IMG/VR virus record: IMGVR_UViG_3300050343_000147
Coordinates: 7,495 to 71,494 of that record
DNA length: 64,000 nucleotides
Strand: one strand, 5' to 3'
DNA from: a virus
Position numbers and translations under genes: made by a program. Position 1 is the first letter of the stretch. Every line of letters begins with the position of its first letter. Positions 16,213 to 59,009 of the stretch are shown here, piece by piece. Below the pieces are notes generated by a model. That model saw nothing but the letters and a program-made list of their open reading frames with translations. It was not told where the DNA came from and ran no database searches.

Positions 16213-16232
16213 GATATAATATAATATAATTA

Positions 16233-17776: not shown

Positions 17777-18935
17777 TTAGTTAAATTTTCTTGTTTTAAT
17801 CTTCAGTTTTGAAGAATCAAGACCGCTTATAGCTTTAACTTTTAATCCACCAACAAATACGTCTCCGGTAGGCGCTGGCCTAACATCTTCGGATATGTTT
17901 TTAGACTTAGCAACAAGATCTTTAGTAGCATCGGATTTACCTTGCTCATAAAAATGTTGTGCTATTTTGTCAACGTTTTCAGCGGCATACATAGCTTTGT
18001 GATAACCTTTAACATCTTTACATTACCTTTATCATCTAAGAACTTCTTAATTGTGTTTGTAATATTCGATTGTTTAGTTGCAACTTCACTAGGATTTTTA
18101 ACACCGTATCTAAATTTTTTTCACCAACACTGAAATCAAAACCTTTGAAATCATTAGTAAAATAATCTTTAGTATTAGATTTAAAATCCTCATGTTGTTG
18201 TTGAGCTGTGTTTTGCTCTTCATTATAGCGATTGAAAAAGTCCATAGCTTTTTGTTGGTCTTGTGTCGTACCAGGTCTCAACTTGATTTCCTCGTAATAT
18301 TGACTTTTTAAACCATCTAAATGCTTTCGGGCTTTAGCAACCTCTTCTTTATACGCAAGTTTCTTTTTACGAATCTCACGCTCCTCGTCCACTTCTTCAT
18401 CAAATGAAAAATTATCTTCAATCATAAAGTTAATTTCGCTTGAATCTAAGTGTGATTTGGCTTGTTTGTAATACTCTCTTAATAAAGTATCATTATCTAC
18501 ATTAGTATAGTCAGCATTTAATCTAACATAATCTTCTAATGTTCCACCTGTTTCTTTCATAAAGTCTACGACTTTTTCGATGTTTTCAGGTAATTTAGCT
18601 ACCTCTCTTGCCTCTTCAGGTGTAGGAGCAATAACTTTTTCTTCAATCTTTTCACCTAGTTGTACTATTTCTTCTTCAACAACTTCTTCAATAGGTTTTA
18701 CTTCTTCTTCTTTAATTTCAGAAACTGGGCTGGGCTCTGGTACTTGTTCGTCCACTTTAGGGCTATCTCCGGTTTGTTCTTCCACAACCACCTTCTTTGT
18801 TTCTCCGACTTGAATGGCATCTGTTTCTTCTGTTTTAGGTTTTGATAAATCGACTTTAATAATATCGTCTTTTACCAATTGTTTAGGCTTCTTTTTTATT
18901 TTAAAAGAGCCTTCTTCTTTTACTTGTTCTGACAT
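17777..18935 (-). CDS. Capsid scaffolding protein (frameshift near 18115)
   Basis: Glu-rich acidic N-terminus and coiled coil, between portal and MCP. The 299-aa and 71-aa fragments join. Confidence 0.65.
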
Positions 18936-18964
18936 AATATAATATAATAAAAATTAATAAAAGT

Positions 18965-38718: not shown

Positions 38719-38721
38719 TTA

Positions 38722-44000: not shown

Positions 44001-46076
44001 TTAAATCGACTTGGTTTTAATTGACTTACTCTGTCTAAAGCTCCAGTTATTTCTACTACATTTTCTTTTAATCTATAATCAGAAGATGTGTTAAATTGTG
44101 TATTAGAACCATCTGTTACAACTGAACCTACAACACCATTTGGATTAGTAAAATACATAGATACTGTTCCAGTTGTAGTTGCTGAACCAATCTTCACTAA
44201 ACCTTGATTAAGACTAATATTATTTGCACCATCACTATAAGATGCACCTGAAATTACAACTTCACCATCTGTGTATGATAGTCTACCCGCTGTTCTTTGC
44301 CACATATAATCAGACCCAAATATTTCAGGAGCCGTGTTAGCTTGATTTGAATTTGTTGTTTCAACTCTATACAAAACACCATACGAACTTGGATGATCAT
44401 TGTAAATACGAGCCTCGGTTCCACTTACGGTAAGTTCAGGATGATTACTTGTTGTTCCTCTTCTAGAAACTTCTCTAACCACCCAAGCTGTATTATTACT
44501 ATTAGCATATACTATATAGACAGAACTATTATATGTTCCAGTTCCAGTGGTTGTTAAAAAAAACTTATACTGATGTTTAGATGTTAAAGTAGTTCCTTGA
44601 AGTTGATTTAATGTTGCGACAAGATAATTACTAGGTCCTATACCTGCGGGTACAGTTCCTCCACTTGAATAAAATGTTTTATACCCTAATCCAACTCCGT
44701 AATTACCAGGTATTGTAAGTTTTTCACTAGGCGAATCCGTCCCAATCCCGACGTTTCCGTTTAAATTTACTCTTAAATGCTCTGTTGTTACATTACCTGT
44801 TATTCCTCCACCAATACCAACTGTAAAAACTGAGTTTGTTGCATAATAACCAGATGGTGTTCCATTCCCATCTGTAGTTACTAATAATATTGGTTTAGTT
44901 GGAACATATGAAGTACCTCCATCAGTACCAGAATTAGTACACAAAGTACTTTCCATTACCGTTAGTTTACTAGGAGGTCCTTGCGTTCCGATCCCGACGT
45001 TGCCGCTTCCTTTGATAGCCATTCTGATTTGAGGTGAAACAGCTGTTTTTGTTCTAAAATATATACTTCCATTATCATTATTAAATCTATTATCAATATA
45101 AGTATCACCATAATAATGATCACCTGTAATGTCAGTACCAGTAGCTGTTGTATCAGAATTCCTTAAAAATAAACCAGTGCTTGCAAAATCTGGCGCTGCT
45201 ATTTCTAATGCTTTACTACCAGCTCTAGTCCATCCGATAGGAAGATTACCTCCAATTGGTTCTGTTGCTGAAGGTGAATCCGTCCCGATCCCGACGTTGC
45301 CGCCATCATCAATAGTGACACGAGTACTAGAATGTCTATAGTCTCGTATACCAAAATGTCCTTCTCCGCCTTCACGTAAAGTAAAGCCCCATCTATTGAG
45401 AGATGGATTTAAGTTTGAAGGAGCAACAAAAGCTATAGGACTAGATGATACTACTTGTATAGCACCATCTGAAATATCATTGATATTATCTGAAGTCGCA
45501 ACTTCAAGTTTAGATTGAGGATCATTTGTTCCAATCCCGACGTTTCCGTCTGAAGCAATACGCATTTTTTCTGACTTAACATCACCATGTTCTGTTACAA
45601 AAGCCATATCAACAGATGCTGGACCTGAATCTAAAAATACAATACGAGCAATCCCTTGTCCTGATGTTCTACTGTCATACATTAATTGACCAAAAGTATT
45701 TATAGTAGCTGTTTGATTAGTAATATGAATTGTTGCTGTACCCGATCTTTGTCCTAAATCATCTGCAGGATTATAAATAACACTATTATTTTTTTCTACA
45801 TCTAACAAAGCTTGAGGTCCATTCGTACCGATCCCGACGTTGCCGTTATTAAAGTAAGAAGTTCCATTACCTCTAACAGAAAACAGTTCAGTTCCATCTT
45901 CCTTTCTTATAAGCAATGGTGCGTGACCTGAAGTACGACCTGCGGTAACTACAACACCACTGCTATCACCAGTATTTTCAAACCAACCTGCCCACCCTGC
46001 TGTAGAACGTATGCTTCTAATTCCATCACCAGAAACATCTAGTTTAAAACTTGGCGAATCCGTTCCAATTCCTACG
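39166..46076. repeat. Dispersed GC-rich 16-bp quasi-palindromic repeat (consensus on + strand CGTYCCRATYCCKACG) encoding NVGIGT junctions
   Basis: Copies at 39166, 39493, 39877, 40114, 40408, 40627, 42759, 43011, 44738, 44984, 45281, 45527, 45824 and 46061. Confidence 0.85.
41088..43790 (-). CDS. Tail fibre (900 aa) with GNVGIGT repeats and an S74 chaperone
   Basis: GNVGIG repeats and SDYRLKEDL...GVLAHELQELIPEVV...VDYSKLVP. Confidence 0.85.
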   Translation of the reverse strand: MANLSNINNKFLFTDGDFLKIGDLAPINNISGTESGISITNSNVASITLDTTAASGKKYVMYSSGNGSLVFWDSDAASARLTIDTSGNVGISETDPSGYWGQANNIVIDTSGNGGITIKSTSTGNGRLVFTDTKSSTAGNTDGGMITYNHTDNEMRFQTNGSQRMVIDSSGKILLNRSTYNFIGTNTSDAADNQRMILAGGGEASPSRGAQLQLYGNEYTGQGGNATLITGGTGYITFLTGSTITERMRIDSSGDVVIGTTSNSYNKGKLTVHNTPGAPATSGTSTTNVGFRLATTTGNSQVMDMGIYNASPYGAWIQVSGAGAMETTSLLVLNPNGGNVGIGTATPGSKLEVNVSDDTFNDIDVLKLRRTWSTGSGSDRAHGISFNDANSVNAAIYADRTNSGSNYKSDLVFITNTGASGTNTSEKMRISSNGAIGIGGANYGAAGEVLTSNGNAAPSWQAAGGSSPWTTTGNDIYNNNSGNVGIGTTSPDYLLDLYKSTGTTSSATGTTLQRLWNYVGSDLNQQKTFIDFVFQDDNANEYPQVRIGAEVGQNGDANTQEKEGSGAFVVYTNNATGVGPGTPTGLAERFRVDYAGNVGIQNTTPSSHPSNRNTLVVGSGVNSGSGTADAGITIFTAPSVFPNQDYATLTFASNTNSYNSANFEFKYLNRDNNQFADSNPSLVLYKGTDKFIGITEQSNQSFIPRIVLQPNYYNSSVTAGNLDQALVTIPLNSGLNNPGVAINGDSSGNSNPFIGMVSTSSSSQITTKFIRFYHNTTLCGTIQKGYNSNSVQYLTTSDYRLKEDLKPFKALDTICKINVYNYKWKDIEGYNVNYGVLAHELQELIPEVVAGEKDEINKKGEEEYQSVDYSKLVPHLIQSIQELKADNDSLKARIETLENN

Positions 46077-46354
46077 TTTCCTCCATCTTTAACTGTCAAA
46101 CCAACACCACTGTCATCAAATAAATTTATATTTTTATTATTTGAAGCCTGTATTGTAAATTGATTACCACCACCACCAACGTCTCCGTATTTAATATTAT
46201 CTCTATAAACTTGATAAGAAGTAAAACTTGCGCCATTATCAATTCTAATTGAACCACCTACTTCCAGTTTTTCATTTGGACCTGTGCTATTAATACCCAC
46301 ATTACCTCCAGTTGTTACTAGGAACTTATTATTTATATTAGATAAATTAGCCAT
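43790..46354 (-). CDS. Tail fibre (854 aa) with GNVGIGT repeats and an S74 chaperone
   Basis: Seven GNVGI repeats and SDYRLKENV...GFLAHEVQEIVPEAI...IDQSKLVP. Confidence 0.85.
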   Translation of the reverse strand: MANLSNINNKFLVTTGGNVGINSTGPNEKLEVGGSIRIDNGASFTSYQVYRDNIKYGDVGGGGNQFTIQASNNKNINLFDDSGVGLTVKDGGNVGIGTDSPSFKLDVSGDGIRSIRSTAGWAGWFENTGDSSGVVVTAGRTSGHAPLLIRKEDGTELFSVRGNGTSYFNNGNVGIGTNGPQALLDVEKNNSVIYNPADDLGQRSGTATIHITNQTATINTFGQLMYDSRTSGQGIARIVFLDSGPASVDMAFVTEHGDVKSEKMRIASDGNVGIGTNDPQSKLEVATSDNINDISDGAIQVVSSSPIAFVAPSNLNPSLNRWGFTLREGGEGHFGIRDYRHSSTRVTIDDGGNVGIGTDSPSATEPIGGNLPIGWTRAGSKALEIAAPDFASTGLFLRNSDTTATGTDITGDHYYGDTYIDNRFNNDNGSIYFRTKTAVSPQIRMAIKGSGNVGIGTQGPPSKLTVMESTLCTNSGTDGGTSYVPTKPILLVTTDGNGTPSGYYATNSVFTVGIGGGITGNVTTEHLRVNLNGNVGIGTDSPSEKLTIPGNYGVGLGYKTFYSSGGTVPAGIGPSNYLVATLNQLQGTTLTSKHQYKFFLTTTGTGTYNSSVYIVYANSNNTAWVVREVSRRGTTSNHPELTVSGTEARIYNDHPSSYGVLYRVETTNSNQANTAPEIFGSDYMWQRTAGRLSYTDGEVVISGASYSDGANNISLNQGLVKIGSATTTGTVSMYFTNPNGVVGSVVTDGSNTQFNTSSDYRLKENVVEITGALDRVSQLKPSRFNFIADADKTVDGFLAHEVQEIVPEAITGIKDGVDEKGNPEYQGIDQSKLVPLLVAAIQELKAEIELLKSK

Positions 46355-46362
46355 ATATTATT

Positions 46363-49300
46363 TTATGATGTGTATCTAGTTACAGCAGTTGCTCCTTGAC
46401 CTACTTGAATTGTGTAGTGTATATCTTGAGTTGTAGTTGCGGCAATTTCACACTTAACAGTATCACCACCTACACCTTGACCATCGTCAGTAAAAGTAAC
46501 TACATAGTCACCATTTGTAGCGGCGCCACTATCTATTATTTTGTTATAATTTGGAGCTGTATTCAACCTGTGTGCTACAGTGTATTTTTTACAAGAATAT
46601 CCAGAAGTTGCAGATGTTAAGTAAACATCAAAAATTAAAGCTCCAGTTGTTGTTCTTGTTAATCTAAATAATGTTGCAGCTGCAGCTCCACCAGTAAAAC
46701 TTTTACTTCCGTTAAATATACCAGATTTTCCACCACCATGTATTATATCACCATCAACAGTTAAGTTACCGTCGATTTCTACATCACCTGAAAAAGTTGC
46801 ATTTTGTGATGAATCTAATGTAAGTGCTAATGTATCTGCTTGACCTGCACCTCCACCAGTTCTAAAATGTAAATTTCCACTTCCTGCAGTTGCACCATAT
46901 GCTCTTATTCTTAAACTATCTCCTGACCTATCTAATACACCTGCACTTGTTTTTGAAGTTGTTAAAGCACCCTTCCAAACTATTGCTCCATTTACTTCAA
47001 GTTTTTCGGTTAAAGAAGTTTCATTAATTCCTACATTACCAGAATTGTCTATTGTTAATCTTTTTGAACCACCTGTATAAAACTCTAAATTTTGACCATA
47101 AGGAGCAGTCGAAGCATCTTCCCCAGAATTTTTAATATAAGGAGCAGCACCTGCTGAATTTTGAAATCTTAATTGAGCACCAACTGTTTGTAGTTGAACA
47201 TTTCCTGAACTATCTATTGTTAATTTTGTATTAGCGTTTGTCTTAAAAGTCATTTCTTTACCGACATTATCATATAAAATACCACCATTATCAAAGTCTG
47301 CTTGATTACCAAAATCTAATATAGAAGTGCCTTCACTTGTGAATGAAGCCCTTGTATTTCCTGAAGCAGTTGATAATTTTAATACACTTCCTGTTGCCCC
47401 TTTCGGTGTACCACTACCTGCAATTAATACAGGTGCTGTTACATTTCCTGAAACAGTAAGTTCTGTACCTCCTGCATTTTGAGAAACCATTGAATCACCA
47501 AGACTAGTTGTTGTGCTCCAAACTGGTAAAGTATATTGTGTACCTGTACCTGGTTGAGCAGATCCTGTTATAGTTATTGTTCCAGCACTTTCAGCCACTG
47601 TTATACCACTAGCACCTGTAAATGTTGCTGTATCAGTTGTACTTATGTTAGTTGTATTCGTTCCATCAGATAAAGTCCAGTATTGGTAATTATCTAAAGT
47701 TGGAAATGCAACTAAATTTAATTCACCGTTTATATAATCTGTAGAAGCTCCAGCGCCTGCAATGTTAATATCACCACTACTTGTTATTGGTGAGTTTGTT
47801 ATAGTAAGTGCGTCACCAGTTTCTGTTAAACCTACACTTGTAACTGTACCTGTTGTTGGTGTTGTCCATGTGTTAACTGAAGCAGAACCTCCACCTGATG
47901 TTAGTACTTGTCCAGCTGTACCGTAAGTTGCAGCACCTAAACTAATCCCTTCGTTTATTCTTAATGTTTCTTCAAAAACAGCAGGACCTTTTACAGTTGT
48001 ACTGTCTGTATCAGCATCACCAAGCGTTGTATTACCTTCAACTACAAAGTTACCAGAGTTACCAACAGTAACCGTAGTACCATCATCTGCTATAAGACCA
48101 GTTGCTAAAGTATTAGATCCAGTCCATTTAGCTATTTTATTTGCAGTACCACTTCCAAGTATAGCAGAAGTGTTATCTATTTTTTGCCAAGTATCAGTTG
48201 CCCCGACTTCTACGAATATAGCCCAATCACCAACTTGCCAATCAGTTATACCATCTAAGTTTGTAGCACCTGCAACACTTACAATATAAAATTCACCAGT
48301 TACACCTGTGCCACTAGCAAGTGTTGGCGTATTAGTGCTAGCGTTCCACGTTCCTTTGTATACAAGACCTTGTGGTATACCTGTTATTTGACCTTGTAAT
48401 TTTGCCATTGCAGCAAGTATCGTGTCAGATGCAGCGATTGCAGCAGAAGTTGGAGTTGGTAAGTTTGTAAGAACTTTACCGGTTACAGTGGTATCGGCTA
48501 TTGTAGTTGGTATTGTAACAGCGCCACCTGATGTATAAGTGTGAGGACCACCTGTTGATACGGCATCACCTGAAATTGCAATAGCTCCAGACGATGCTAA
48601 AGCTGTTGCTGTACTTGCATTACCAGTTAAAGCACCTACAAAATCTGTAGATGTAATACTTGTGTAACCTGTGTATGCACCAGCTGACCCAGTAAATGTA
48701 CCGTCAGTTAATACGCCACCAACCTCTAGTTCACCAGCTATAGCTACTTTACCAGTTGCACCGCCTGCAAAAGTAAATCCTGCAGCACCTGTTAGTGTAT
48801 CAGTGTCTGACCAGTATGTAACTTGATTAGCTGCACCAGATCCGTCTGGCACACCTGTTGTAGCTATTGTTAAATCAAAGTTAGCTGCATCCCAAGTTGT
48901 AGTTATATTAGTACCATCAGTTACCGTGACAGCAGTGCCACTAGGTATAGCTGTACCTTCTAAGCTCCAATTGTATAATGGAACTTCTGTAACCCAGTTA
49001 GTACCAGAACCTGTAGACGATAGTATTTGACCTGCAGTACCTATATCACCGCTTGAATCAGAGTATGATCCTGTATTTATTAAACTAGCAAACGTACCTG
49101 ATGTTGTAGCTTCAAAAGCTCCAGTTACTTTAGCACCACCTACTAGTGTTTCTATTTTTTTAGAGCCTTCAAAGTTTAAATCAACCCCGGCTTTACCGTT
49201 TAAAATTAATTTTTTAGCAGTTGCTGTAGCTGATATATCTATATCACCTGAACTGTTGGATATTGTAGTTTTACCTTCAGTATTTACAATTTTTAAATCA

Positions 49301-50554: not shown

Positions 50555-50645
50555 AGTTTTTTTTATTTATATTCTGTCTACGCTGTAAACATGTGAATTT
50601 ATGTGATTTCTCTAACGGACTTTTGGTAAAGCGCGCTATGATAGA

Positions 50646-50654
50646 TAATATCAC
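50646..50654 (-). promoter_or_regulatory. Candidate late promoter GTGATATTA heading the structural arm
   Basis: Similar motifs occur in intergenic gaps at 9215-9223(-), 15436-15444(-), 30721-30729(-), 59039-59047(+) and 60910-60918(+). Confidence 0.4.
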
Positions 50655-50701
50655 AGGTTTTTAACAAGGTTTACTAGTAGTATATAGAGAGTATTTGAAT
50701 A

Positions 50702-50748
50702 GTGTGACAATAGCCTGTTACTATACTACCTTAATAGCCTTATGTCAC
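50702..50748. repeat. Dyad site, copy 1 (half-sites GTGACAWWAGS)
   Basis: GTGTGACAATAGCCTGTTACTAT...GCCTTATGTCAC matches the reverse complement of 57580-57625 at 20 of the first 23 nt and 9 of the last 11 nt. Confidence 0.75.
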
Positions 50749-50948
50749 TGTTTTCATTCTGAAAAAGTGTTGGTTATATAGAATTATGGTGTTACCCCTA
50801 TCCCTCTGGTTATCAACGTGTTACACAAAACGGTTTTCAAATGACGGCCCGGCCCCACTTTTTTTCACAATTGTGTAAATGTTTTACCTTTTTTGTTCAA
50901 TATCGTGTACATGTTTACATATTCACTACAACTACTAACTATTTACTA

Positions 50949-50981
50949 TTACAAACTAAATACGAGTCTACTTGGATAATA
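50949..50981 (+). promoter_or_regulatory. Early repeat motif, copy 1 (putative phage early promoter)
   Basis: TTACAAACTAAATACGA-gtctactt-GGATAATA. Confidence 0.7.
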
Positions 50982-51063
50982 TAGATGTAAGTAATTAATT
51001 AATACTAGTTACTTCACAAGAATGAGTGTGGGAGTAAGATAATTAACACTATAAAAATATACT

Positions 51064-51189
51064 ATGAATAAATTAATACAAGAATTAAAAATAAAGTTTC
51101 CATACAATGAAACAATGTGTAAAGATAAGTACAATGAGACTATACTAGATTATCTATATGAAGAAATTGTAGTAGAACTTACAAACTAA
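51064..51189 (+). CDS. Small early protein (41 aa)
   Basis: MNKLIQELKIKFPY...ELTN*. The stop lies inside motif copy 2. Confidence 0.5.
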   Translation: MNKLIQELKIKFPYNETMCKDKYNETILDYLYEEIVVELTN

Positions 51190-51211
51190 ATACGACACAA
51201 ACTGGATAATA
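51179..51211 (+). promoter_or_regulatory. Early repeat motif, copy 2
   Basis: TTACAAACTAAATACGA-cacaaact-GGATAATA. Confidence 0.7.
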
Positions 51212-51254
51212 TAAATGTAAAACAACTAATAAATAATAAATAAATAAATATAAT

Positions 51255-51482
51255 ATGAGTAATTTAAAATCAAAAAGATTTGTCATCAGACAGTCACTAA
51301 TCGGAAAAAATGTAACAATAGAATTTACAAACAAGAAAGGTATTACATACACTTACAATCATGACATAGCGTTCAACATTATGAAAAGTAAGTTACAAAG
51401 TATGAATTGCTTTCAAAAATACAAGTCTTACACTGCAACAAATAATATTCCAGTTGCACTAAGAAATGTAGAGTTAGTATAA
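51255..51482 (+). CDS. Early hypothetical protein (75 aa)
   Basis: Intact ORF with an A-rich leader. Confidence 0.65.
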   Translation: MSNLKSKRFVIRQSLIGKNVTIEFTNKKGITYTYNHDIAFNIMKSKLQSMNCFQKYKSYTATNNIPVALRNVELV

Positions 51483-51539
51483 TAATCTAACAAGTGTGCG
51501 TTCAGTATTTTCTACACTATAAACACAGTTGAATACTTA

Positions 51540-51583
51540 TGACATAATGGTTTATGTGAGTTCGATTCTCACCATGTCAACTA
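51540..51583 (+). ncRNA. tRNA-like minihelix (acceptor stem plus T-arm only)
   Basis: TGACATA-atggtttat-GTGAG-TTCGATT-CTCAC-CATGTCA-A-CTA: a perfect T-arm and 6/7-bp acceptor stem, with no D or anticodon arm. Confidence 0.55.
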
Positions 51584-51599
51584 ATCTTAAAAATAATAT

Positions 51600-51692
51600 A
51601 TGACTAATTTACAAAAATTCAATGTACTAATTGTACTTACACTAATCATCGTTTTAACTAACGTAATTAATAACGGCGGATTTTTACTATGA
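51600..51692 (+). CDS. Tiny hydrophobic peptide (30 aa)
   Basis: MTNLQKFNVLIVLTLIIVLTNVINNGGFLL*, with an ATGA overlap onto the next ORF. Confidence 0.45.
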   Translation: MTNLQKFNVLIVLTLIIVLTNVINNGGFLL

Positions 51693-51847
51693 TTGCTGTA
51701 ATGGATAACTACGATTTCACTTGGGCTATACTTGCTCAAATGAAAGATGAACTAACAAGAGAAGATGTGTTAGGCATACTAGAAACTCACAAAAATTGTT
51801 TCACTGATGCAACTAACTACAAACTAAACACGATCACTAATGGATAA
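51689..51847 (+). CDS. Small early protein (52 aa)
   Basis: MIAVMDNYDFTWAIL...NYKLNTITNG*. Ends inside motif copy 3. Confidence 0.5.
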   Translation: MIAVMDNYDFTWAILAQMKDELTREDVLGILETHKNCFTDATNYKLNTITNG

Positions 51848-51849
51848 TA
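51817..51849 (+). promoter_or_regulatory. Early repeat motif, copy 3
   Basis: CTACAAACTAAACACGA-tcactaat-GGATAATA (2 mismatches). Confidence 0.65.
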
Positions 51850-51854
51850 ATAAT

Positions 51855-52076
51855 ATGAATAAACAATATATAGACTATCCCGCTTCAGAAATCAAAGCAA
51901 AGTTACAACAATGTCTTGACTATGAAGCAAAATACGGTGAAATACCACAAGTAACTGCTGTCAAAAAATGGTGTCAAAGCTATGAGTATCGCAAGAATGA
52001 GTGGCAATGGCGACAAAATGTAGCTAAATCAATTAACTTTAATACTAACTACACTAAACCTTATTACAATGGATAA
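51855..52076 (+). CDS. Early hypothetical protein
   Basis: ORF track gives 51840-52076. The ATG at 51855 (MNKQYIDYP) is preferred because it follows the motif like the other copies. Confidence 0.6.
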   Translation: MNKQYIDYPASEIKAKLQQCLDYEAKYGEIPQVTAVKKWCQSYEYRKNEWQWRQNVAKSINFNTNYTKPYYNG

Positions 52077-52178
52077 AACAAAAGAATTAGTTGTTCGAAG
52101 AAAAATTTGGTGAAGGATCACTAGAGTTTGCAATAGAACAAGGTTTTGACAAAGAAGAATTACTAAACAATATATAAT

Positions 52179-52598
52179 ATGGCATATCAAACATGGAAAC
52201 TCGAACAAGAATCGCTTGAAAATGCGTACGCTAGACGACTACTAGTCGAGTATAATATCAAAGAAGTCACAACACAGCGTCAAGCTAAGAATGGTACAAG
52301 AGAGTTTGAATTTCCTGTACCATCAAGAAAAAGATGGCCAAATGGTAACAGACTAAGACTAGCGGTGTATAAATCTGGTTATGTAAGAAACTGTAACAGT
52401 TGCTCATCTAACTATCAACTAAATCCAGTTTACAAATCAGAGAGTAGACAAATGTTTCTAACTGACGAAGGTATACTTAAAACATATATCTATAATGGTT
52501 ACACTAGAACTAAAATCTGGAATACTATGGCAAGAATGAAATTTATGCTTGACTTCTATATCAGAAATTACAAACTAAATACGAATAATAACGGATAA
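52179..52598 (+). CDS. Early hypothetical protein (139 aa)
   Basis: Intact ORF ending NYKLNTNNNG* inside motif copy 4. Confidence 0.65.
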   Translation: MAYQTWKLEQESLENAYARRLLVEYNIKEVTTQRQAKNGTREFEFPVPSRKRWPNGNRLRLAVYKSGYVRNCNSCSSNYQLNPVYKSESRQMFLTDEGILKTYIYNGYTRTKIWNTMARMKFMLDFYIRNYKLNTNNNG

Positions 52599-52600
52599 TA
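52568..52600 (+). promoter_or_regulatory. Early repeat motif, copy 4
   Basis: TTACAAACTAAATACGA-ataataac-GGATAATA. Confidence 0.7.
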
Positions 52601-52607
52601 TAAGTAT

Positions 52608-52754
52608 ATGAAACAAATTAAATTCAATCAAGAAACAGGTAATGTACTGTTAGAAACAGACAAAGGTTACCAAGTGCTTACTCCACTACATCAAAACATA
52701 GAGTACACAGACTACACATCGTTTTATCGCATAAATAATAGAATATATGTGTAA
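52608..52754 (+). CDS. Small early protein (48 aa)
   Basis: MKQIKFNQETGNVLLETDKGY...RIYV*, directly after motif copy 4. Confidence 0.55.
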   Translation: MKQIKFNQETGNVLLETDKGYQVLTPLHQNIEYTDYTSFYRINNRIYV

Positions 52755-52995
52755 GAATATGCGTGAGTTACTAGAATACTCTAAAAATAGCAGACGTAAA
52801 CGTGCATTTCAGCACTACGAACTCAACAAAGTGCATGGTGAATGCAGTGGTTTGACTGATCGCGAATGGAATAATGTAAAAACACGCGGTAAAACATCGT
52901 ATACTCAATCAAGTAAGTACACAATGCACAAAATGTGGCGTGATAATACACAGAAATACGACTTAAAACAATTAAAAATAATAAATAAAGCATGA
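52747..52995 (+). CDS. Early hypothetical protein (82 aa)
   Basis: ORF overlapping its neighbours by a few nt. Confidence 0.55.
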   Translation: MCKNMRELLEYSKNSRRKRAFQHYELNKVHGECSGLTDREWNNVKTRGKTSYTQSSKYTMHKMWRDNTQKYDLKQLKIINKA

Positions 52996-53192
52996 GTAAA
53001 ATGAAAATTATAGATGAAATAGCAGACGCACAAGTGTCTCACATCAAAGAAACACTGTATGAAGCAACAAATTGGGCAATGGATGGTGTTATGGAGTTTG
53101 AAGGACTTGATAGCGACGATTATAACCATGTTCACAATGCTATAATGGTAGCAGTAATAGAAAAATTACATACAGGATTAGATGAAAACTAG
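52992..53192 (+). CDS. Early hypothetical acidic protein (66 aa)
   Basis: ATGA-coupled ORF. Confidence 0.55.
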   Translation: MSKMKIIDEIADAQVSHIKETLYEATNWAMDGVMEFEGLDSDDYNHVHNAIMVAVIEKLHTGLDEN

Positions 53193-53310
53193 AAAACTAA
53201 GACATAAGCACATTAAACTACTTAAAATAACTAAGTATGAAGCGGAAAGATTAGAAGTAGAATACTACAGACGGTTTAATTACAAACTAAATACGATTGT
53301 AAACGGATAA
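53182..53310 (+). CDS. Small early protein (42 aa)
   Basis: MKTRKLRHKHIKLL...NYKLNTIVNG*. Ends inside motif copy 5. Confidence 0.5.
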   Translation: MKTRKLRHKHIKLLKITKYEAERLEVEYYRRFNYKLNTIVNG

Positions 53311-53312
53311 TA
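53280..53312 (+). promoter_or_regulatory. Early repeat motif, copy 5
   Basis: TTACAAACTAAATACGA-ttgtaaac-GGATAATA. Confidence 0.7.
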
Positions 53313-53317
53313 TAAAT

Positions 53318-53506
53318 ATGAGATGTAAATGTAATAACAAAATACCGGCAGGCAGAATAGCATTAGGTTATTCAAACTGTGTAAACTGTAGTTCAACAAA
53401 GCAATATAGCTATGTACCTATTATTGCTAACAAACAAGTTCTAGAAATACAAATAGTAAGTCAAGAACTAAGTGATCAAGTACACAAAGCTTGGCGCAGG
53501 AAATAA
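53318..53506 (+). CDS. Small zinc-finger protein (DksA/TraR C4-like)
   Basis: MRCKCNNKIPAGRIALGYSNCVNCS resembles the CxxC..IPxxR....CxxC pattern. Confidence 0.55.
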   Translation: MRCKCNNKIPAGRIALGYSNCVNCSSTKQYSYVPIIANKQVLEIQIVSQELSDQVHKAWRRK

Positions 53507-53507
53507 G

Positions 53508-53598
53508 GGAGTGATATGGTAAGTGAGACAGTATCTTAGCCGATTGTGGCAAGACAGTAACCCAAAGGTCGGCGGTTCGATTCCTTCCCACGCCACTA
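53508..53598 (+). pseudogene. Degenerate tRNA-like element
   Basis: The 3' half TAACCCAAAGGTC-GGCGG-TTCGATT-CCTTC-CCACGCC-A-CTA resembles an initiator-tRNA 3' half. Acceptor and T stems are imperfect, and the middle forms a non-canonical hairpin. Confidence 0.45.
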
Positions 53599-53615
53599 AC
53601 ATTAAATAATTAAAT

Positions 53616-53843
53616 ATGGCAAATATGAGTTATTGCAGGTTTGAAAATACTGCAAGAGATTTAGAAGACTGTGTTATTGCTCTTCAAAACAATGACTTAA
53701 ATGAGTACATGAGTGTTCATGAGGTTAATGGTTTAGCTGAACTACAACTGTTAGCGATGGATATTGTAGCAATGCAAGATCACATCGGTGATATAATAGA
53801 AAAAGAAAAACAAAGATTTGAAGCACACGAATTTACAAACTAA
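53616..53843 (+). CDS. Early hypothetical protein (MANMSYCRFENT family)
   Basis: Widespread phage N-terminus. The stop lies inside motif copy 6. Confidence 0.7.
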   Translation: MANMSYCRFENTARDLEDCVIALQNNDLNEYMSVHEVNGLAELQLLAMDIVAMQDHIGDIIEKEKQRFEAHEFTN

Positions 53844-53865
53844 ATACGAATTAATACGGATAATA
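53833..53865 (+). promoter_or_regulatory. Early repeat motif, copy 6
   Basis: TTACAAACTAAATACGA-attaatac-GGATAATA. Confidence 0.7.
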
Positions 53866-53870
53866 TAAAT

Positions 53871-54104
53871 ATGAAGATCAAAACAATTTATGACAGACTA
53901 AAACCAGGTTTCAAGTCGTCACTGCAAAAAAACGCTAGAAAATATTCTAGTGCTAAAAGGCTTAAGTACACTCTTATGTCTCAAACGTCATGGTATGACT
54001 TAACGGTTAGTCAAGTATCTGATATATCAGTTTACTGTGACATACCAACTTACAAATTGTCTGCTCAAGACTTAATGTATGGTAACTCTATAATCAATAA
54101 ATAA
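53871..54104 (+). CDS. Early hypothetical protein (77 aa)
   Basis: ATG 6 nt after the GATAAT of motif copy 6. Confidence 0.6.
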   Translation: MKIKTIYDRLKPGFKSSLQKNARKYSSAKRLKYTLMSQTSWYDLTVSQVSDISVYCDIPTYKLSAQDLMYGNSIINK

Positions 54105-54105
54105 T

Positions 54106-54360
54106 ATGACTACAAGAGTAAAAAACTTAGCACATGACAAAGCATTCGCTAATGTATACAGTCTAGACACTGACATTAGCAGGCTAAAGCAAGAAATAAA
54201 AGATGATAATACGCCTTTTATAACAATAGACCAACTAGAAGGTGTATTGAGACACACAAAACAACAACGTGAAGTGTGGGATTATATAGCAAAATTAATA
54301 GAAATAGATCACGAAAGAATAGATTACTTAGATTATGAAAAACAAAACAACATTACCTAA
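54106..54360 (+). CDS. Early hypothetical protein (84 aa)
   Basis: Intact ORF. Confidence 0.6.
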   Translation: MTTRVKNLAHDKAFANVYSLDTDISRLKQEIKDDNTPFITIDQLEGVLRHTKQQREVWDYIAKLIEIDHERIDYLDYEKQNNIT

Positions 54361-54565
54361 ATGGTTCGACGGTACGATATACGACAAAGGCGAAACAGTG
54401 ACAAACCCTTTTTCAGGCGACACTTACGAACTAAACAACTTAGAATTAAGTATGTATGACTTAATTATGGGTTCTCAAATGGTACAAAAGTACGATTTAA
54501 CAAGAAAAGGCTTAGATTGGTTTAGAAAAGCTAATCCTAAAGCTTACCAAGTGCTATTAGATTAG
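54335..54565 (+). CDS. Early hypothetical protein (76 aa)
   Basis: VTNPFSG...GLDWFRKANPKAYQVLLD, a recurring phage hypothetical family. Confidence 0.65.
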   Translation: MKNKTTLPKWFDGTIYDKGETVTNPFSGDTYELNNLELSMYDLIMGSQMVQKYDLTRKGLDWFRKANPKAYQVLLD

Positions 54566-54570
54566 CATAA

Positions 54571-54643
54571 TGACTCGTGGTGTAATTGGCAACACGTCTG
54601 GTTTTGGTCCAGAAGAGTCCAGGTTCGAGCCCTGGCGAGTCAA
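54571..54643 (+). tRNA. trnQ: tRNA-Gln (anticodon TTG)
   Basis: Full cloverleaf: acceptor TGACTCG/CGAGTCA, D-stem GTGT/ACAC, anticodon stem TCTGG/CCAGA with loop TT-TTG-GT, T-arm CCAGG-TTCGAGC-CCTGG. Followed by CTA rather than CCA. Confidence 0.92.
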
Positions 54644-54664
54644 CTAACATTAAATAATAATAAT

Positions 54665-54826
54665 ATGAGTAGATTTAAAAGTAAACTTACACCTCATTTC
54701 AAGGTGAGTTTAGCTAAGTCAGTGATTAGAGTCATGGGCTTTAGCATCCTATTGTCATCATTGCCAATAGGTGTAGCAGTATTAATAATCGCTGAAATAG
54801 TCAGCATAGGTGAAGAGTTAGTATAA
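54665..54826 (+). CDS. Small membrane protein (53 aa)
   Basis: HFKVSLAKSVIRVMGF...AVLIIAEIVSIGEELV*, two hydrophobic segments. Confidence 0.6.
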   Translation: MSRFKSKLTPHFKVSLAKSVIRVMGFSILLSSLPIGVAVLIIAEIVSIGEELV

Positions 54827-55332
54827 TGAGTACAAGAAATATGACACTAGTGATCGATAGATCACACGCAGAAGATCATGAAGCAGGCTTTGCACTTAAA
54901 CCTCAATTGGTAAGTGATAAAGCTTATGTTCACATGTATATGCATCACGACGGTTACCCTGAGTGGAGAGGCGTAGAGCTTGCTAACTGGATTCAACACA
55001 TGCAAGACTACAGAGGTTTTACTAACTTCGGTGATGGTTCAAGAATAGCATCACATTTAGTACACGACTTTCACTACAATAGTCAATACTTATATCCTAA
55101 CGTTGATTCGTGTGACCATGAATATACGTGGATTATATGGACAGGTAAACCTGATGTATGGTTAAGTGCTTATAATCAGTACACTAACAGATGTGAATTT
55201 GTTGGCACACCTGATAAACTTATAAATAAATATAAGCAGAAAAACATGGGCTATACTAACTGGACTGAAAAGTTTTTAGTAGACAGTCATGCAGAAGAAA
55301 ATTACAAACTAAATACGAAACACAATGGATAA
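54826..55332 (+). CDS. Early hypothetical protein (MSTR...HHDGYPE family)
   Basis: MSTR and YMHHDGYP motifs, common in phage early regions. Ends inside motif copy 7. Confidence 0.7.
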   Translation: MSTRNMTLVIDRSHAEDHEAGFALKPQLVSDKAYVHMYMHHDGYPEWRGVELANWIQHMQDYRGFTNFGDGSRIASHLVHDFHYNSQYLYPNVDSCDHEYTWIIWTGKPDVWLSAYNQYTNRCEFVGTPDKLINKYKQKNMGYTNWTEKFLVDSHAEENYKLNTKHNG

Positions 55333-55334
55333 TA
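55302..55334 (+). promoter_or_regulatory. Early repeat motif, copy 7
   Basis: TTACAAACTAAATACGA-aacacaat-GGATAATA. Confidence 0.7.
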
Positions 55335-55339
55335 ATAGT

Positions 55340-55453
55340 ATGTTCAAACAAACCGAAGATCCAATCAAAGTAAAATCTCATCTTGACGGTGAGTCTTACA
55401 CATTAAAACAATTGTTAGTACGTATTGAAGACTTAGAAGAACAAACAGTCTGA
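55340..55453 (+). CDS. Small early protein (37 aa)
   Basis: MFKQTEDPIKV...EEQTV*, directly after motif copy 7. Confidence 0.45.
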   Translation: MFKQTEDPIKVKSHLDGESYTLKQLLVRIEDLEEQTV

Positions 55454-55495
55454 TATAAAGTACTTTTTAGCTAATCCTAAAAAACTAAATTATTA

Positions 55496-55765
55496 ATGAC
55501 AGAAAAAGAATACGAAAAGCTACTAGATAGAATTAAATTCGATCTATATCAAGAGTTTATTAACCCTGACACTGCTACATATGGTATTAAATATGTAGAC
55601 GAAGAGATAACTCCTGAGTCATTAACTGACAGAGAAATATTGCAAGACGAATTAGGTAGGCTTTGTCTTATACAAAATAAGTATGTAGACGATGAAGAAT
55701 ACAGAAAAGCTGCAATAATACAAAATAAAATAACTAAAATTCAAAATAAAATAGATAAATTATGA
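55496..55765 (+). CDS. Hypothetical protein with a UVR-like C-terminal helix
   Basis: VDDEEYRKAAIIQNKI resembles the UvrB/C 'EEYEKAA..RD.I' motif. Confidence 0.5.
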   Translation: MTEKEYEKLLDRIKFDLYQEFINPDTATYGIKYVDEEITPESLTDREILQDELGRLCLIQNKYVDDEEYRKAAIIQNKITKIQNKIDKL

Positions 55766-56616
55766 TTAAACCAATGCTCGCATACAAAGTAGACAAAAAA
55801 CCTGTCGACTGGTCCGAGAAAGTATACATTCAACCTAAGCTTGACGGCGTAAGGTGTGTTATATACGTCGACGACAAAGAAAACATCAGATGTTTCTCAC
55901 GTACAGGTAAAGAATTTCACAATCTTGAACACATTAAACTATCGTTAAACAAATTTTTCTTTGACTATGCTAATGTAGATGTTGTACTCGACGGTGAACT
56001 ATACAACCATGATCTTAAAGATGACTTCGAAAAGATTATATCATTAGTTAGAAAACAAAAACCAACTGATGCTGATAAAGCTGAAGCTGAAAGGCTAATA
56101 CAGTTTCATTGCTATGACTATATAGAAACAGTTATGGACAAGCCTTACAGTTACAGATCTGATCAACTAGCTTGTTCTGATATGTATAACTACTGTATTA
56201 AATACGTAGAAACTACTCTAGTTAATTCTAAAGAGTCTGCAAAGTTAAGACATCAGTATAATCTAAATAACGGCTACGAAGGCTCTATATTGCGTCTAGA
56301 CAAACCTTATCAGCAAAAACGATCTTACAACTTACAAAAGTTTAAAGACTTTAATGACACCGAAGCTACAATTGTAGGTTACGAAATCGGCAAAGGTAAA
56401 CGTGAAGGTACTCTTGGCAAGTTTCTAATGCAAGATGATGATGGCATAGAGTTTGGTTGTCCTCCAGGTAAAGGCTACAACTACAAAGATCTAGCTAATA
56501 TACTTAACAATATTCATGACTACATAGGCAAACGAGCTACGTTTACTTATTTCGAACGTACTCAGTACGGTAGTTACAGACACCCATTGTTTAAAACTAT
56601 TCGTAACTATGAGTAA
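55762..56616 (+). CDS. ATP-dependent DNA ligase
   Basis: Motif I QPKLDGVR, LDGELY, YEGSILR, KRSYNLQKFK, and an OB domain ending YRHPLF. Confidence 0.92.
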   Translation: MIKPMLAYKVDKKPVDWSEKVYIQPKLDGVRCVIYVDDKENIRCFSRTGKEFHNLEHIKLSLNKFFFDYANVDVVLDGELYNHDLKDDFEKIISLVRKQKPTDADKAEAERLIQFHCYDYIETVMDKPYSYRSDQLACSDMYNYCIKYVETTLVNSKESAKLRHQYNLNNGYEGSILRLDKPYQQKRSYNLQKFKDFNDTEATIVGYEIGKGKREGTLGKFLMQDDDGIEFGCPPGKGYNYKDLANILNNIHDYIGKRATFTYFERTQYGSYRHPLFKTIRNYE

Positions 56617-56706
56617 GCTAGTATGGCAATTGTATAACGACAATATGATCAGCATAGAAGTTGCCAATATGCTACTTGATCAACATTATAACAGGGTAAA
56701 TAAACT

Positions 56707-57243
56707 ATGAATATATTTTACTTACACCCTGATCCTTATGAAGCTGCCGCTTATCATTATGACAAACATAAAGTTAAGATGATACTCGAAGCAGCACAAA
56801 TGCTATGTACCGCTCATCGCATGTATAACCTCGATTATGAATGTGAGGATATACCTTACAAGAAAGCGCATGTAAATCATCCGTCTACCATATGGGCTAG
56901 ACAGTCTGGTCAAAACTATTATTGGCTATACCATTACATGCTTGCACTTGGCGATGAGTATACTAAGCGTTATGGTAAAATACATTTAAGTATTACTAAA
57001 TGTAAAAAACCATTAGCTAAATATCCAGGTGGTATATTACATACCGGTTTTACACAACCGCCACAATGTATGCCTGATGAATATAAAGTTGAAGGTAATT
57101 CTGTTAAAGCTTATTGGAATTACTATATTAATGATAAGAAAACTATAATTAATAAAAATGAAAAACCTTATACTAAGTACCCTTTTGACTGTGACCGCTA
57201 CGATATATCACGCGACACCGTCTCAGACAGACAGTACGCCTGA
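56707..57243 (+). CDS. Pyrimidine-dimer DNA glycosylase/endonuclease V-like protein
   Basis: MNIFYL...DKHKVKMILEAAQMLCTAH...HVNHPSTIWAR...EYTKRYGKIH...PPQCMPDEYK. Confidence 0.8.
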   Translation: MNIFYLHPDPYEAAAYHYDKHKVKMILEAAQMLCTAHRMYNLDYECEDIPYKKAHVNHPSTIWARQSGQNYYWLYHYMLALGDEYTKRYGKIHLSITKCKKPLAKYPGGILHTGFTQPPQCMPDEYKVEGNSVKAYWNYYINDKKTIINKNEKPYTKYPFDCDRYDISRDTVSDRQYA

Positions 57244-57508
57244 TAGAACAGCTACAAATTTTAAAATAAATATGAACAACCCTGAGATACACAGAATAAT
57301 TGCTGTATCTCGGGATCTTGAAGCTAAAGGTTTTAAAATGAATACAGTAGTTGTAATTAGTAATGCAGGTGATATGAATGGCCTTTGGGTCATAAGAGAT
57401 AGAATGAATAAAAGATGGACAAATAGAATAGATTTCCTGGTCGACGAGACAATGAAGGGAGGTAAATGGACTAACGTAAAAATTAAATTATATGAGCACA
57501 GTAACTAA
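57158..57508 (+). CDS. 3D-domain (MltA/RlpA-like) cell-wall-related protein
   Basis: Signal-like N-terminus, VTATIYH...QTDSTPDRTA, IIAVSRDL, and RDRMNKRWTNRIDF. Confidence 0.7.
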   Translation: MKNLILSTLLTVTATIYHATPSQTDSTPDRTATNFKINMNNPEIHRIIAVSRDLEAKGFKMNTVVVISNAGDMNGLWVIRDRMNKRWTNRIDFLVDETMKGGKWTNVKIKLYEHSN

Positions 57509-57617
57509 TGTAAAACATTTAATGTCATCAGATGTTTTTAAAATAAAAACAAAAGTTAAAGCTTTTCAAAAGCCAAAACGTGACAATAGGTCTAATAATA
57601 AGAGAGTAAGAGGCTAA
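57492..57617 (+). CDS. Small basic peptide (41 aa)
   Basis: MSTVTNVKHL...KRVRG*. TAATG overlap with the next gene; spans dyad site copy 2. Confidence 0.35.
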   Translation: MSTVTNVKHLMSSDVFKIKTKVKAFQKPKRDNRSNNKRVRG

Positions 57618-57625
57618 TGTCACAC
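57580..57625. repeat. Dyad site, copy 2 (inverted relative to copy 1), overlapping the ATG of the HTH gene
   Basis: GTGACAATAGGTC...GAGTAAGAGGCTAATGTCACAC. Confidence 0.75.
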
Positions 57626-58262
57626 AACTACGTATCAATACCGCGTTATTTACAATATCTAAACAAGAGGCGGATTGTATACAGACGTAATCCTATCACT
57701 GATAAACCTACTTTAGAATTTGAATACGGTAAGTTTTATGAAGATGGTACTTACGAATGCTATGACTTATTTCGTAGTAAAGCTAAAATAACTACATACA
57801 AAAGTTTAAAATGGCATTTGTTAGTATTGTGGTATTTAAATCCTAAACTTGATATGAATAAGTTTACTGAACTAGCAGAAACTATAGCTAATTATAAATA
57901 TGGATTTATTGCGTTTGATATACCTGCAGAGTTATTAAAACGAATGATATATGATGTTAGCATGTGTGATCTTAGAAGAACCACCTAAAAACAAACTAAG
58001 AAAAGTAATATTTAATGACAATAGCGGTTTAAACTTGTCAGAAAAATTAACTATAGTTGGACAGTTGATAGGTAAAACTAAACGTATACATCAAGATGAC
58101 ATATACCAATGCATGCTAGATATTAATGACATGAACCAAAAAATAACTATTACAAAATTAGCCTCAACACTTAAATGTTCTGTTAGAACAATACATAGAA
58201 ACATGGGCTATGAACTTAAAAAAGAAAAAGAACTTTTAAATATGGAAAATGAAAAAATATAA
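57617..58262 (+). CDS. HTH DNA-binding protein (one apparent frameshift near 57975); possible replication initiator or regulator
   Basis: The fragments join at YDVSMCDL/EEPPKNK. C-terminal HTH KITITKLASTLKCSVRTIHRNM. Confidence 0.6.
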
Positions 58263-59009
58263 CGTACCTAATTATGTTAGATATAAAAAAGATGTTATTG
58301 CTTGTCAACCTGATGAAGAAATACCATTAAATGAACTAACAGAAAAACAGTTAACATATAGATTTTTACCTCTTGTAGAAAACATAGGCCGTAAGTTTGC
58401 TACAACACAACAAGCTTCAGGTGTTATGAGTATTAATGATATAATACAAGAAGGTAATTTAAACTTAACTAAAGCTATACGTAGAATAGACTGGTTAAGA
58501 CTAGAAGAATCTGACGATCAATGTTAAAAACATTAAAGTCTTTTTTATCTAAACGTATTAAAGGTGGTATCAGACGTGCTATTGACAAAAATAGAGGTGA
58601 TATAAGAATACCTGAACATAAGTTAAATGAAATACGCAAAGATAATGGCAAAGACCATCGTATGGTTGCAATGTTTTTTAATAGTATGTTTTTATCTATA
58701 GATGAAAAACCTAAAGATGACGAAGAGTCTATGATCTATCAAATAGCAGACAAATCAGAGCCTTATAATATAGGTTTGTTAAATGTTTATTTAACTGGTT
58801 TGTTAAAACGACATCTTAATGAACGTGAGTTTGATGTGTTAAGATTAAGCTATGGTTTAGACTGCGAAAAGCATTCGGCTAACAAAATAGCAGAGATATT
58901 AAACATCGAAGGAAGCAGTGCTTATGTACGTGTTTCAGAGCTAAAAAAGCAAGCTGTAGATAAGCTAATTGATAGTGTTGATCACTCGCAAGTGCTTGAT
59001 TATCTGTAG
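58249..59009 (+). CDS. Phage sigma-70 family RNA polymerase sigma factor (frameshift near 58522)
   Basis: Region 2 (LPLVENIGRKF...DIIQEGNLNLTKAI...RIKGGIRRAIDKNRGDIRIPEH) and region 4 (LNEREFDVLRLSYGLD...IAEILN...RVSELKKQAVDKL). Confidence 0.85.

Follow-up and report, generated by a model that had tools for sequence, protein, structure and literature searches.

The Bacillus phage SPO1, with gp28 and gp34, and the coliphage phiEco32, with gp36, encode sigma factors that read phage promoters, and at the middle promoters of T4 a MotA box is used together with AsiA in the process called 'sigma appropriation'. In the present study, we describe a motif composed of a 17-nt arm, an 8-nt spacer and a second block containing GATAAT, which occurs seven times in a 64,000-nt stretch of the IMG/VR virus record IMGVR_UViG_3300050343_000147 (hereafter the window, bases 7495-71494 of this 71,494-base record, CheckV completeness 100%), and each copy of which is very probably a promoter of the sigma-70-family plan. 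As in SPO1 and phiEco32, no RNA polymerase of the phage's own was found here, a sigma-70-family factor is encoded, and the putative promoters are bipartite, near-identical and not of the host type. However, the sigma-dependent promoters of SPO1 and phiEco32 serve middle or late genes and their early promoters are host-type, whereas the motif described here heads the early arm upstream of the sigma gene, and its pairing with this sigma is a candidate one only.

Similar to T4 middle promoters, the motif would combine a -10 element with a conserved box centred near -30 that replaces the normal -35 element, a box that in T4 is read by a phage factor; our box exceeds that of T4 in length, and the -35 position is still occupied by a hexamer. 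MotA and AsiA Pfam families were not found in 17 plus-arm proteins and the helix-turn-helix (HTH) protein of a relative, a scan in which some small open reading frames (ORFs) were left out. Promoters of phage RNA polymerases (the 23-bp promoter of T7, the hairpin of N4 and those of the virion polymerase of crAss-like phages) are likewise long, nearly invariant, phage-specific and set in one orientation, but the motif is bipartite with a free spacer, unlike that of T7, and unstructured without a promoter hairpin, unlike that of N4. T4-type phages also carry promoter-early stem-loop cassettes (PeSLs) between small genes (PMC2839356, PMC4122927). As described there, PeSLs share with our locus the many near-identical early promoters between small genes of unknown function and the plasticity of the region, and possibly the gain and loss of cassettes at the repeats among relatives; they differ in being terminator-promoter composites with a stem-loop and of host-sigma-70 type, whereas the motif has no stem-loop and is not host-type. 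Here, related contigs have joints at motif edges and cassette content is variable, but conserved cassettes are mostly syntenic. Judged by its sequence, the motif would be a tripartite, non-host promoter heading the early arm, and its predicted starts would often be leaderless.

Seven copies of one motif at the head of the early arm

The genome consists of two arms. The minus-strand arm, up to window position 50554, carries virion and tail-fibre genes, and the plus-strand arm, from ~51064, begins with small ORFs without a family, followed by genes for ATP-dependent ligase, pyrimidine-dimer glycosylase, the sigma-70-family factor, ERF recombinase, PDDEXK nuclease, primase-helicase and thymidylate synthase; ribonucleotide reductase genes follow past the window end on the same (plus) strand. 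We searched both strands of the window for the motif with up to 3 mismatches and used 100 dinucleotide-preserving shuffles as background. Seven matches were obtained, all on the plus strand and within the first 4.4 kb of the early arm, and none of the 100 shuffled windows contained a match. The copies are as follows, with the predicted transcription start (+1) placed at motif position 39, counting the first T as position 1.

50949..50981, plus strand: motif copy 1, opens the early arm and is located in the divergent intergenic region; predicted +1 at G50987; next ORF 51064-51189
51179..51211, plus strand: motif copy 2, predicted +1 at G51217; followed by ORF 51255-51482 (75 aa)
51817..51849, plus strand: motif copy 3, two mismatches; predicted +1 is the A of ATG 51855, leaderless
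52568..52600, plus strand: motif copy 4, predicted +1 at A52606; ATG at 52608 with a 2-nt leader; 48-aa ORF
53280..53312, plus strand: motif copy 5, with +1 predicted at the A of ATG 53318; followed by a 62-aa Cys-rich ORF
53833..53865, plus strand: motif copy 6, with +1 predicted at the A of ATG 53871; followed by a 77-aa ORF
55302..55334, plus strand: motif copy 7, with +1 predicted at the A of ATG 55340; final copy ahead of the genes for ligase, HTH protein, sigma and replication

Six copies are exact and copy 3 carries two mismatches, T1>C and T13>C, and the spacer is 8 nt in all seven. These results reproduce what a reading of the sequence alone had reported, namely seven co-oriented copies with a constant 8-nt spacer, none elsewhere in the window, and an arm invariant except in copy 3. 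The whole record contains the same seven copies on the forward strand, none on the reverse strand and none matching a reversed-pattern control. A repeat finder independently returned the same motif family (D2), and a k-mer enrichment scan detected no over-represented non-coding words besides the motif; the remaining repeats are coding ones, within tail-fibre genes.

Moreover, the conserved unit proved slightly longer than first described, since position 39 is a purine in all seven copies. ORFs from upstream enter the motif in two frames, stopping at the TAA of positions 9-11 (copies 2 and 6) or at positions 29-31 (copies 3, 4, 5 and 7), and therefore the motif is conserved as nucleic acid and not as peptide. 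The motif ends 3-7 nt ahead of an ATG in 7/7 copies. In copies 3, 5, 6 and 7 the ATG begins exactly at position 39, and in copy 4 at position 41; in copies 1 and 2, where the ATG is directly followed by TAA, position 39 is a G and the leaders measure 77 and 38 nt.

Conservation among relatives and linkage to gene starts

The exact motif (22 specified bases) was found in at least 119 stretches of IMG/VR contigs whose flanks are unrelated in sequence, so that the search across related genomes proposed in the sequence-only reading did reveal conservation. These loci hold 450 copies with up to 4 mismatches, of which 430 have a unique context; these 430 copies and the position weight matrix built from them were chosen for likeness to the consensus, which limits what can be argued from them in favour of a promoter. 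Within this sample A14, C15 and G27-A30 are invariant, A31 is kept in 426/430 and T32 in 428/430, and A31, T32 and A33 each vary in at most 5 copies. Positions upstream of position 1 carry no information, positions 34-38 favour TAAAT, and position 39 is A or G in 419/430. An ATG-started ORF of at least 35 aa follows on the same strand within 400 nt in 418 copies. The ATG lies at position 39 in 90 copies, at 38 in none, at 40 in one and at 41 in 16, and in the others anywhere from 42 to more than 100, with 273 copies having it at position 46 or beyond. Such a sharp peak on position 39 combined with an otherwise free distance fits a transcription start, and not a ribosome-binding signal.

To avoid dependence on the motif itself, we also used 59 loci fetched via the sigma protein. 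All 97 occurrences of the core ACGA-N9-GATAAT in these loci are on the sigma strand, with none opposite, and each spacing from 5 to 13 other than N9 gives only 1-3 matches. The seventh base after GATAAT is a purine in 94/94 unique copies, and in 32 of these an ATG starts there. In near-complete genomes the core ACGA-N9-GATAATA is present in 21/21, with 3-12 copies each; 149 copies lie on the early-gene strand and one on the opposite strand, and a reversed control gave one. The motif strand equals the sigma-gene strand in 20/20 genomes, and the core copies cluster upstream of sigma, with one more copy 1-2 kb downstream in some genomes.

The linkage extends to individual genes. Homologues of the ORFs behind the copies keep a motif within 140 nt upstream in 62/68 cases for the 75-aa ORF of copy 2, 66/75 for the 62-aa Cys-rich ORF of copy 5, 39/47 for the 77-aa ORF of copy 6 and 7/8 for the 48-aa ORF of copy 4. 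For genes inside the units the corresponding counts in relatives are 1/17, 1/19, 0/18, 0/41, 0/11 and 1/55, and for the ligase 5/65.

The clade is a widespread group of uncultured marine flavobacterial phages that share this probable promoter class. The motif was absent from the three cultured phages checked (Maribacter phage Panino, Flavobacterium phage elemoF and Cellulophaga phage phi14:2). A lead that suggested kinship with the crAss-like phi14:2 was rejected, because its genome has no core copy and its transcription study reports no common motif upstream of early transcripts (10.1101/2020.03.07.982082). One sigma-bearing relative (L172) has no GATAATA motif and instead shows four copies (~28, 1403, 4203 and 8312) of another repeat of ~40 nt (..AACAAYGTTATAAGAAACATTCAAAAAATTGAACCA), which suggests an exchange of promoter motifs between lineages of the group. 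Among the papers listed by literature searches for the 10-mer CTAAATACGA and for Cellulophaga phage promoters, none was found to describe the motif, supplementary files being outside the search.

Anatomy of the probable promoter

GATAAT, at positions 27-32 in 7/7 copies, has the A at the second and the T at the sixth place that a sigma-70-family -10 hexamer requires. If GATAAT is taken as the -10 element, position 39 becomes +1 and the 17-nt arm spans -38 to -22. The hexamer ACAAAC (positions 3-8) then lies 18 bp upstream of GATAAT with fixed spacing, at the place of a -35 element, and the predicted start purine lies ~7 nt after the -10 element, a position at which the sequence fits in all 94 unique sigma-fetched copies and all seven window copies. 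From this arrangement we infer that the copies are promoters starting at position 39.

Diverged lineages resolve the arm into two parts, a -35-position hexamer ACA[A/G]AC and a spacer box TAAATACGA. Other lineages carry ACAGAC, ACGGAC or GCAGAC in the same place. The spacer box is present in most lineages, and loci L145 and L154 lack it and read ACGGAC-N18-GATAATA. GATAAT itself is retained in lineages whose upstream box differs, and GATAATA in every variant save a few loci with other repeats (L172, L167). The 17-nt block, which the sequence-only reading noted as longer than a normal -35 box, is refined here to a -35-position hexamer plus TAAATACGA, the latter missing in some lineages. As for its larger proposal of a phage-specific early promoter, the motif is indeed promoter-like, phage-specific, conserved in relatives and not host-type, and the promoter role itself is probable.

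Folding of the seven 60-nt motif stretches gave no structure beyond shuffles (z +0.2 to +1.3; minimum free energy -0.1 to -5.5 kcal/mol). A terminator scan returned 6 sites against 5.2 expected, none at a motif copy, and a scan for E. coli-type promoters returned 97 sites against 73 expected and was uninformative.

Contrast with host-type promoters

The hosts of protein-detectable relatives are Flavobacteriaceae. For the capsid-like protein, the matching records come from phages of Flavobacterium (68), Cellulophaga (15) and Maribacter (1), each at <60% identity, and the nearest relative of the primase-helicase is that of Cellulophaga phage phi10:1 (42.8% identity). No close cultured phage was found at the DNA level, the sole match in a megablast of 50700-55600 against cultured phages being 56 nt of tRNA-Gln; tblastn of sigma and of a 2301-aa protein against cultured phages gave no match. 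With a 61-nt motif stretch as query and E values up to 10 allowed, blastn returned chance matches only, although its low-complexity filter may hide real ones.

According to PMC9723704, flavobacterial sigma-A promoters have the -7 box TAnnTTTG (-12 to -5) and TTG at -33. The motif has neither TTG at -33 nor TTTG at -7, and what it shares with the host consensus is only A at -11 and T at -7, which are general to sigma-70-family -10 elements; TTTG is missing from both of its elements, and its hexamers are 18 bp apart. The middle promoters of phi14:2 are described as rifampicin-sensitive and read by bacterial RNA polymerase in that study (10.1101/2020.03.07.982082), and they served as positive control: three of four regions upstream of phi14:2 middle genes (g070, g075 and g110) show TTG...TAnnTTTG. 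The mismatch to the Bacteroidota promoter asserted in the sequence-only reading is therefore upheld, as neither element is in the motif and host-dependent promoters of phi14:2 do fit the consensus. In the window, TTTG-N17-21-TAnnTTTG occurs 3 times against 3.9 expected and TAnnTTTG 110 times against 105.6 expected, with no TAnnTTTG on the plus strand in 50555-58249. Across sigma loci (467 kb), 8 host-type promoters were counted in sense and 45 in antisense; as the strands differ in composition, we draw no conclusion from these counts.

We also searched one genome per prokaryote species and found the exact motif in 17 stretches, most of them short or phage-like contigs in Bacteroidetes or Flavobacteriaceae metagenome-assembled genomes (MAGs). 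Another three (L198 324-353, L205 4275-4304 and L199 150-179) come from long chromosomal contigs, in MAGs assigned to Flavobacteriales or Flavobacteriaceae. Each of these three MAGs contains the core once, and ACARAC-N18-GATAATA was found 5 times against 3 in the control, three of the five being the known copies. With single copies only, these likely hosts have no regulon of this promoter type and apparently no sigma devoted to it. A 1.39-Mb Flavobacteriales MAG contig has its exact copy 94 nt ahead of a gene for a 293-aa TerB-domain protein, with parA and parB adjacent, and in two Flavobacteriaceae MAGs the exact copy is found 19 nt before a 27-aa hydrophobic ORF. These chromosomal copies, which point to the host group, may be captured phage promoters or infection-responsive ones. 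A further contig, of 117 kb in a Flavobacteriaceae MAG (G054 contig C7; L196, L206, L211-L214), holds the same motif copies twice, 62.6 kb apart, and looks like a phage genome assembled as a concatemer and not like a prophage.

Candidate readers of the motif

Two genes of the early arm are relevant to the question of what would read the motif.

57617..58262, plus strand: gene of a protein with a C-terminal HTH, directly upstream of sigma; split near 57971 in the window
58249..59009, plus strand: phage sigma-70-family factor with regions 2 and 4; split at 58520 in the window

The sigma factor is not mentioned in the sequence-only reading. In relatives it is a single ORF of 252-264 aa, preceded and overlapped by a 213-aa ORF with a C-terminal HTH, and it is present in 35/50 motif-bearing contigs and in 20/20 of those with a completeness of at least 90%. 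Its regions 2 and 4 fit the two-element geometry of the motif. Contigs from other samples show a one-base deletion at 57971 and a one-base insertion after 58520, exactly at the breaks of the HTH and sigma genes, and the splits thus resemble errors of assembly or frameshifts specific to the strain. Assembly indels leave the seven motif copies unaffected, and these are corroborated by hundreds of copies elsewhere.

No RNA polymerase match was found for the large proteins in Pfam, PHROG and PDB. The 2301-aa protein lacks DxDxD, and ORFs of at least 300 aa lack D[FYLIVM]D[GIVAST]D; PF00940 had no match in the genome, and its control matched nowhere either. The 2301-aa protein is encoded at the end of the late arm on the minus strand (genome 6013-12918, i.e. 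window 1-5424 and upstream) and has a basic Ser/Arg-rich C-terminus. It had no match in Pfam, PHROG, PDB or cultured phages, and in the Atlas it gave unnamed clusters and weak leads to LPD38/LPD39 polyvalent proteins; it may be an ejected internal protein.

Covariation of the sigma region 4.2 helix or of the HTH helix with the upstream box was sought, and no clean pattern emerged. Loci L145 and L154 share both the ACGGAC-type box without TAAATACGA and a distinct HTH helix, ERT[VI]IRNIN, a coincidence that is confounded by descent. Given that the motif is a promoter, we infer the phage sigma as the foremost reader, tentatively and at slightly less than an even chance; the unmodified host holoenzyme is a less likely reader, a factor delivered with the virion, as raised in the sequence-only reading, is an improbable one, and the small remainder falls to others.

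The divergent intergenic region and a candidate late promoter

Between the two arms lies one further non-coding feature.

50555..50948, no strand: divergent intergenic region between late and early arms, strongly conserved in relatives

Among six genomes this region is 73% identical per column, whereas the flanking protein is only 39-45% identical. It contains an invariant 18-bp inverted repeat (GTGACAATAGCCTGTTAC ... TAATAGGCTTATGTCAC), a terminator-like GC hairpin with a T run at ~50836-50866, ~90 nt before copy 1, and a conserved TTTG-N20-TAATAT block. The region may hold signals that start transcription of either arm, an origin or an operator. A non-coding RNA was considered here and rejected: the fold is worse than that of shuffles (z +2.0), the invariant long helix gives no covariation, and there is no Rfam match.

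A second motif, TTAATT-N-TATAATATT-N5-ATG or a close variant, precedes the homologue of the late gene 18036-18935 in 21/21 genomes (L216-L235), this homologue being ~400 aa long in relatives. In the window it precedes two late genes, at 18936-18960 and 16213-16236 on the minus strand, and it has an ATAATAT core in common with the early motif. We regard TTAATT-N-TATAATATT as a candidate late promoter.

Other features of the genome and quality of the record

The assembly of the window contains indels, and at 19.4-23.3 kb, where the record seems rich in them, the large terminase and portal genes fall into fragments in all three frames (4 and 7 pieces by tblastn against Maribacter phage Panino). 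An alternative genetic code with TAG, TGA or TAA as sense was rejected, as it did not restore long ORFs in 18-32 kb; the breaks are frameshifts. ORF-free gaps of 0.5-1.2 kb within 13-32 kb may likewise stem from indels. In the early arm, 51483-51575 and 53507-53600 end in a T-arm-like GGTTCGATTC in the fashion of tRNAs, and ARAGORN and Rfam call neither; the only tRNA called is tRNA-Gln at 54571-54644. Both stretches may be tRNA genes that were damaged by assembly indels or have decayed. In the late arm, window 38700-47300 contains three successive tail-fibre or tail-spike genes of 788, 900 and 854 aa with common repeated segments and a C-terminal S74 chaperone domain, which look like a paralogous set of receptor-binding proteins.

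Proposed mechanism and rival explanations

We propose that the early arm is served by promoters of the sigma-70-family plan whose specificity is supplied by the phage, an explanation that, taken as a whole, we hold to be evenly poised between right and wrong. GATAAT would be the -10 element, ACAAAC would stand in place of the -35 element, and TAAATACGA would be a third, lineage-specific element in the upstream half of the spacer. Transcription would start at the purine of position 39; in four of the seven window copies this purine is the first base of the ATG start codon, so that the mRNA would be leaderless. With seven such promoters, the initial 4.4 kb of the early arm would fall into as many transcription units, and the final one would continue into the ligase, sigma and replication genes. 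As the promoter is not of the host housekeeping type, its specificity should come from the phage. The first candidate for the reader would be the phage's own sigma-70-family factor, perhaps together with the HTH protein encoded just before it, and this sigma could be bootstrapped by weak host transcription or carried in with the virion. A stronger form, in which the motif is the private promoter of a sigma and HTH module that drives nearly the whole infection without host-type promoters, and flavobacterial hosts have captured single copies as an infection-triggered defence trap (the TerB-domain and 27-residue peptide genes, which would be expressed only once the transcription factor of the phage is present), seems to us decidedly improbable.

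Several observations weigh against the phage sigma as the reader. In every genome, sigma is encoded on the motif strand and downstream of the cluster of copies, and in L165 a motif copy stands directly before the sigma ORF, so that sigma would need its own product in order to be made; scans for the host-type pattern and for k-mers found no other conserved promoter upstream of sigma. In sigma region 4.2, the helix predicted to read DNA, YVRVSELKKQAV, hardly varies, whereas the upstream box differs among lineages, and L145 and L154 lack TAAATACGA altogether. Moreover, the head of the early arm is normally the place of host-read promoters. Of the arguments in favour, the co-occurrence of sigma and motif is confounded by common descent, and the 430 copies behind the position weight matrix were chosen by consensus. 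As to the promoter role itself, 24 RNA runs contain the stretch as assembled contigs, and in the four examined (X1, X2, X3 and X6) the contigs gave no pile-up of starts or ends; we draw nothing from their depth or from uncovered parts.

In a first rival explanation, the same promoter would be read by the unmodified host holoenzyme as a classical early promoter, and the phage sigma, produced from the resulting transcripts, would then switch transcription to the late arm. The copies open the early arm, and sigma lies in the unit of the last copy and in L165 right behind a copy, which would make a cascade without a bootstrapping problem; the late-gene motif TTAATT-N-TATAATATT-N5-ATG, present in 21/21 genomes, could then be the true target of sigma, and the single exact copies before chromosomal genes of MAGs, if these are ordinary genes, would need a promoter that the host can read. 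However, the motif has no likeness to TTG/TAnnTTTG beyond A at -11 and T at -7, the Cellulophaga phage promoters shown by experiment to be host-dependent do follow TTG/TAnnTTTG, and candidate host genomes show no promoter class of this kind. We therefore consider a host-read promoter unlikely, though still the most serious rival to a phage-supplied specificity. Alternatively, the motif could act at the RNA level in polycistronic early transcripts, as a translation operator or processing site for a phage protein, comparable in role to the targets of T4 RegA or RegB. Its 3' part is A/U-rich and unstructured, it stands 3-7 nt before an ATG in all window copies, with ATG-TAA at copies 1 and 2, and the lack of Shine-Dalgarno sequences in flavobacteria, as stated in PMC6847099, would suit such a signal. 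But the start codon in relatives can lie anywhere from 0 to >100 nt away, copy 1 stands ahead of every gene in the arm, the spacing between the two blocks is strict and DNA-like around a free 8-nt spacer, and the ATG peak at 39 (with 0 at 38 and 1 at 40) agrees better with a transcript start than with a ribosome-binding distance, which makes an RNA signal very improbable.

The arm-N8-arm layout had reminded the sequence-only reading of tyrosine-recombinase sites, and the copies might be recombinase cores or homology patches that shuffle gene cassettes; cassette content between copies does differ among relatives, and contigs of related strains in the RNA runs join differently at motif edges (ending at 50947 and 52571, starting at 51850 and 53868). 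This analogy is not supported, however, as the arms are unrelated in sequence and are not inverted repeats, the genome has no match to an integrase family (the control being positive in 14/14 genomes), and all copies are co-oriented at gene starts, a strictness of orientation and linkage that recombination sites do not demand. Conserved cassettes are also largely syntenic, and shuffling at repeated promoters is given as a known by-product in T4-type phages in PMC4122927. We hold recombination sites to be very improbable and the least probable of these explanations, and a promoter of the sigma-70-family plan with phage-supplied specificity remains the explanation that we prefer.

Significance

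Marine Flavobacteriia phages are abundant, and very little is known of how they regulate their genes; in public metagenomes, this clade's sigma by itself has at least 8000 protein matches. A widespread clade without a detectable RNA polymerase, whose early arm opens with an almost invariant and probably non-host promoter and whose sigma gene lies behind it, raises the question of what starts transcription at time zero. The predicted leaderless starts amount to 34% of sigma-anchored copies, against 5.5% of mRNAs reported as leaderless for Flavobacterium psychrophilum (PMC9723704). In practice, the motif marks early transcription units in metagenomic contigs, its chromosomal copies point to candidate hosts, and it could serve as a phage-inducible promoter for flavobacterial genetics. 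The interest of the motif would rise further if a phage factor is required by the promoter from time zero onwards, or if infection triggers the chromosomal copies.

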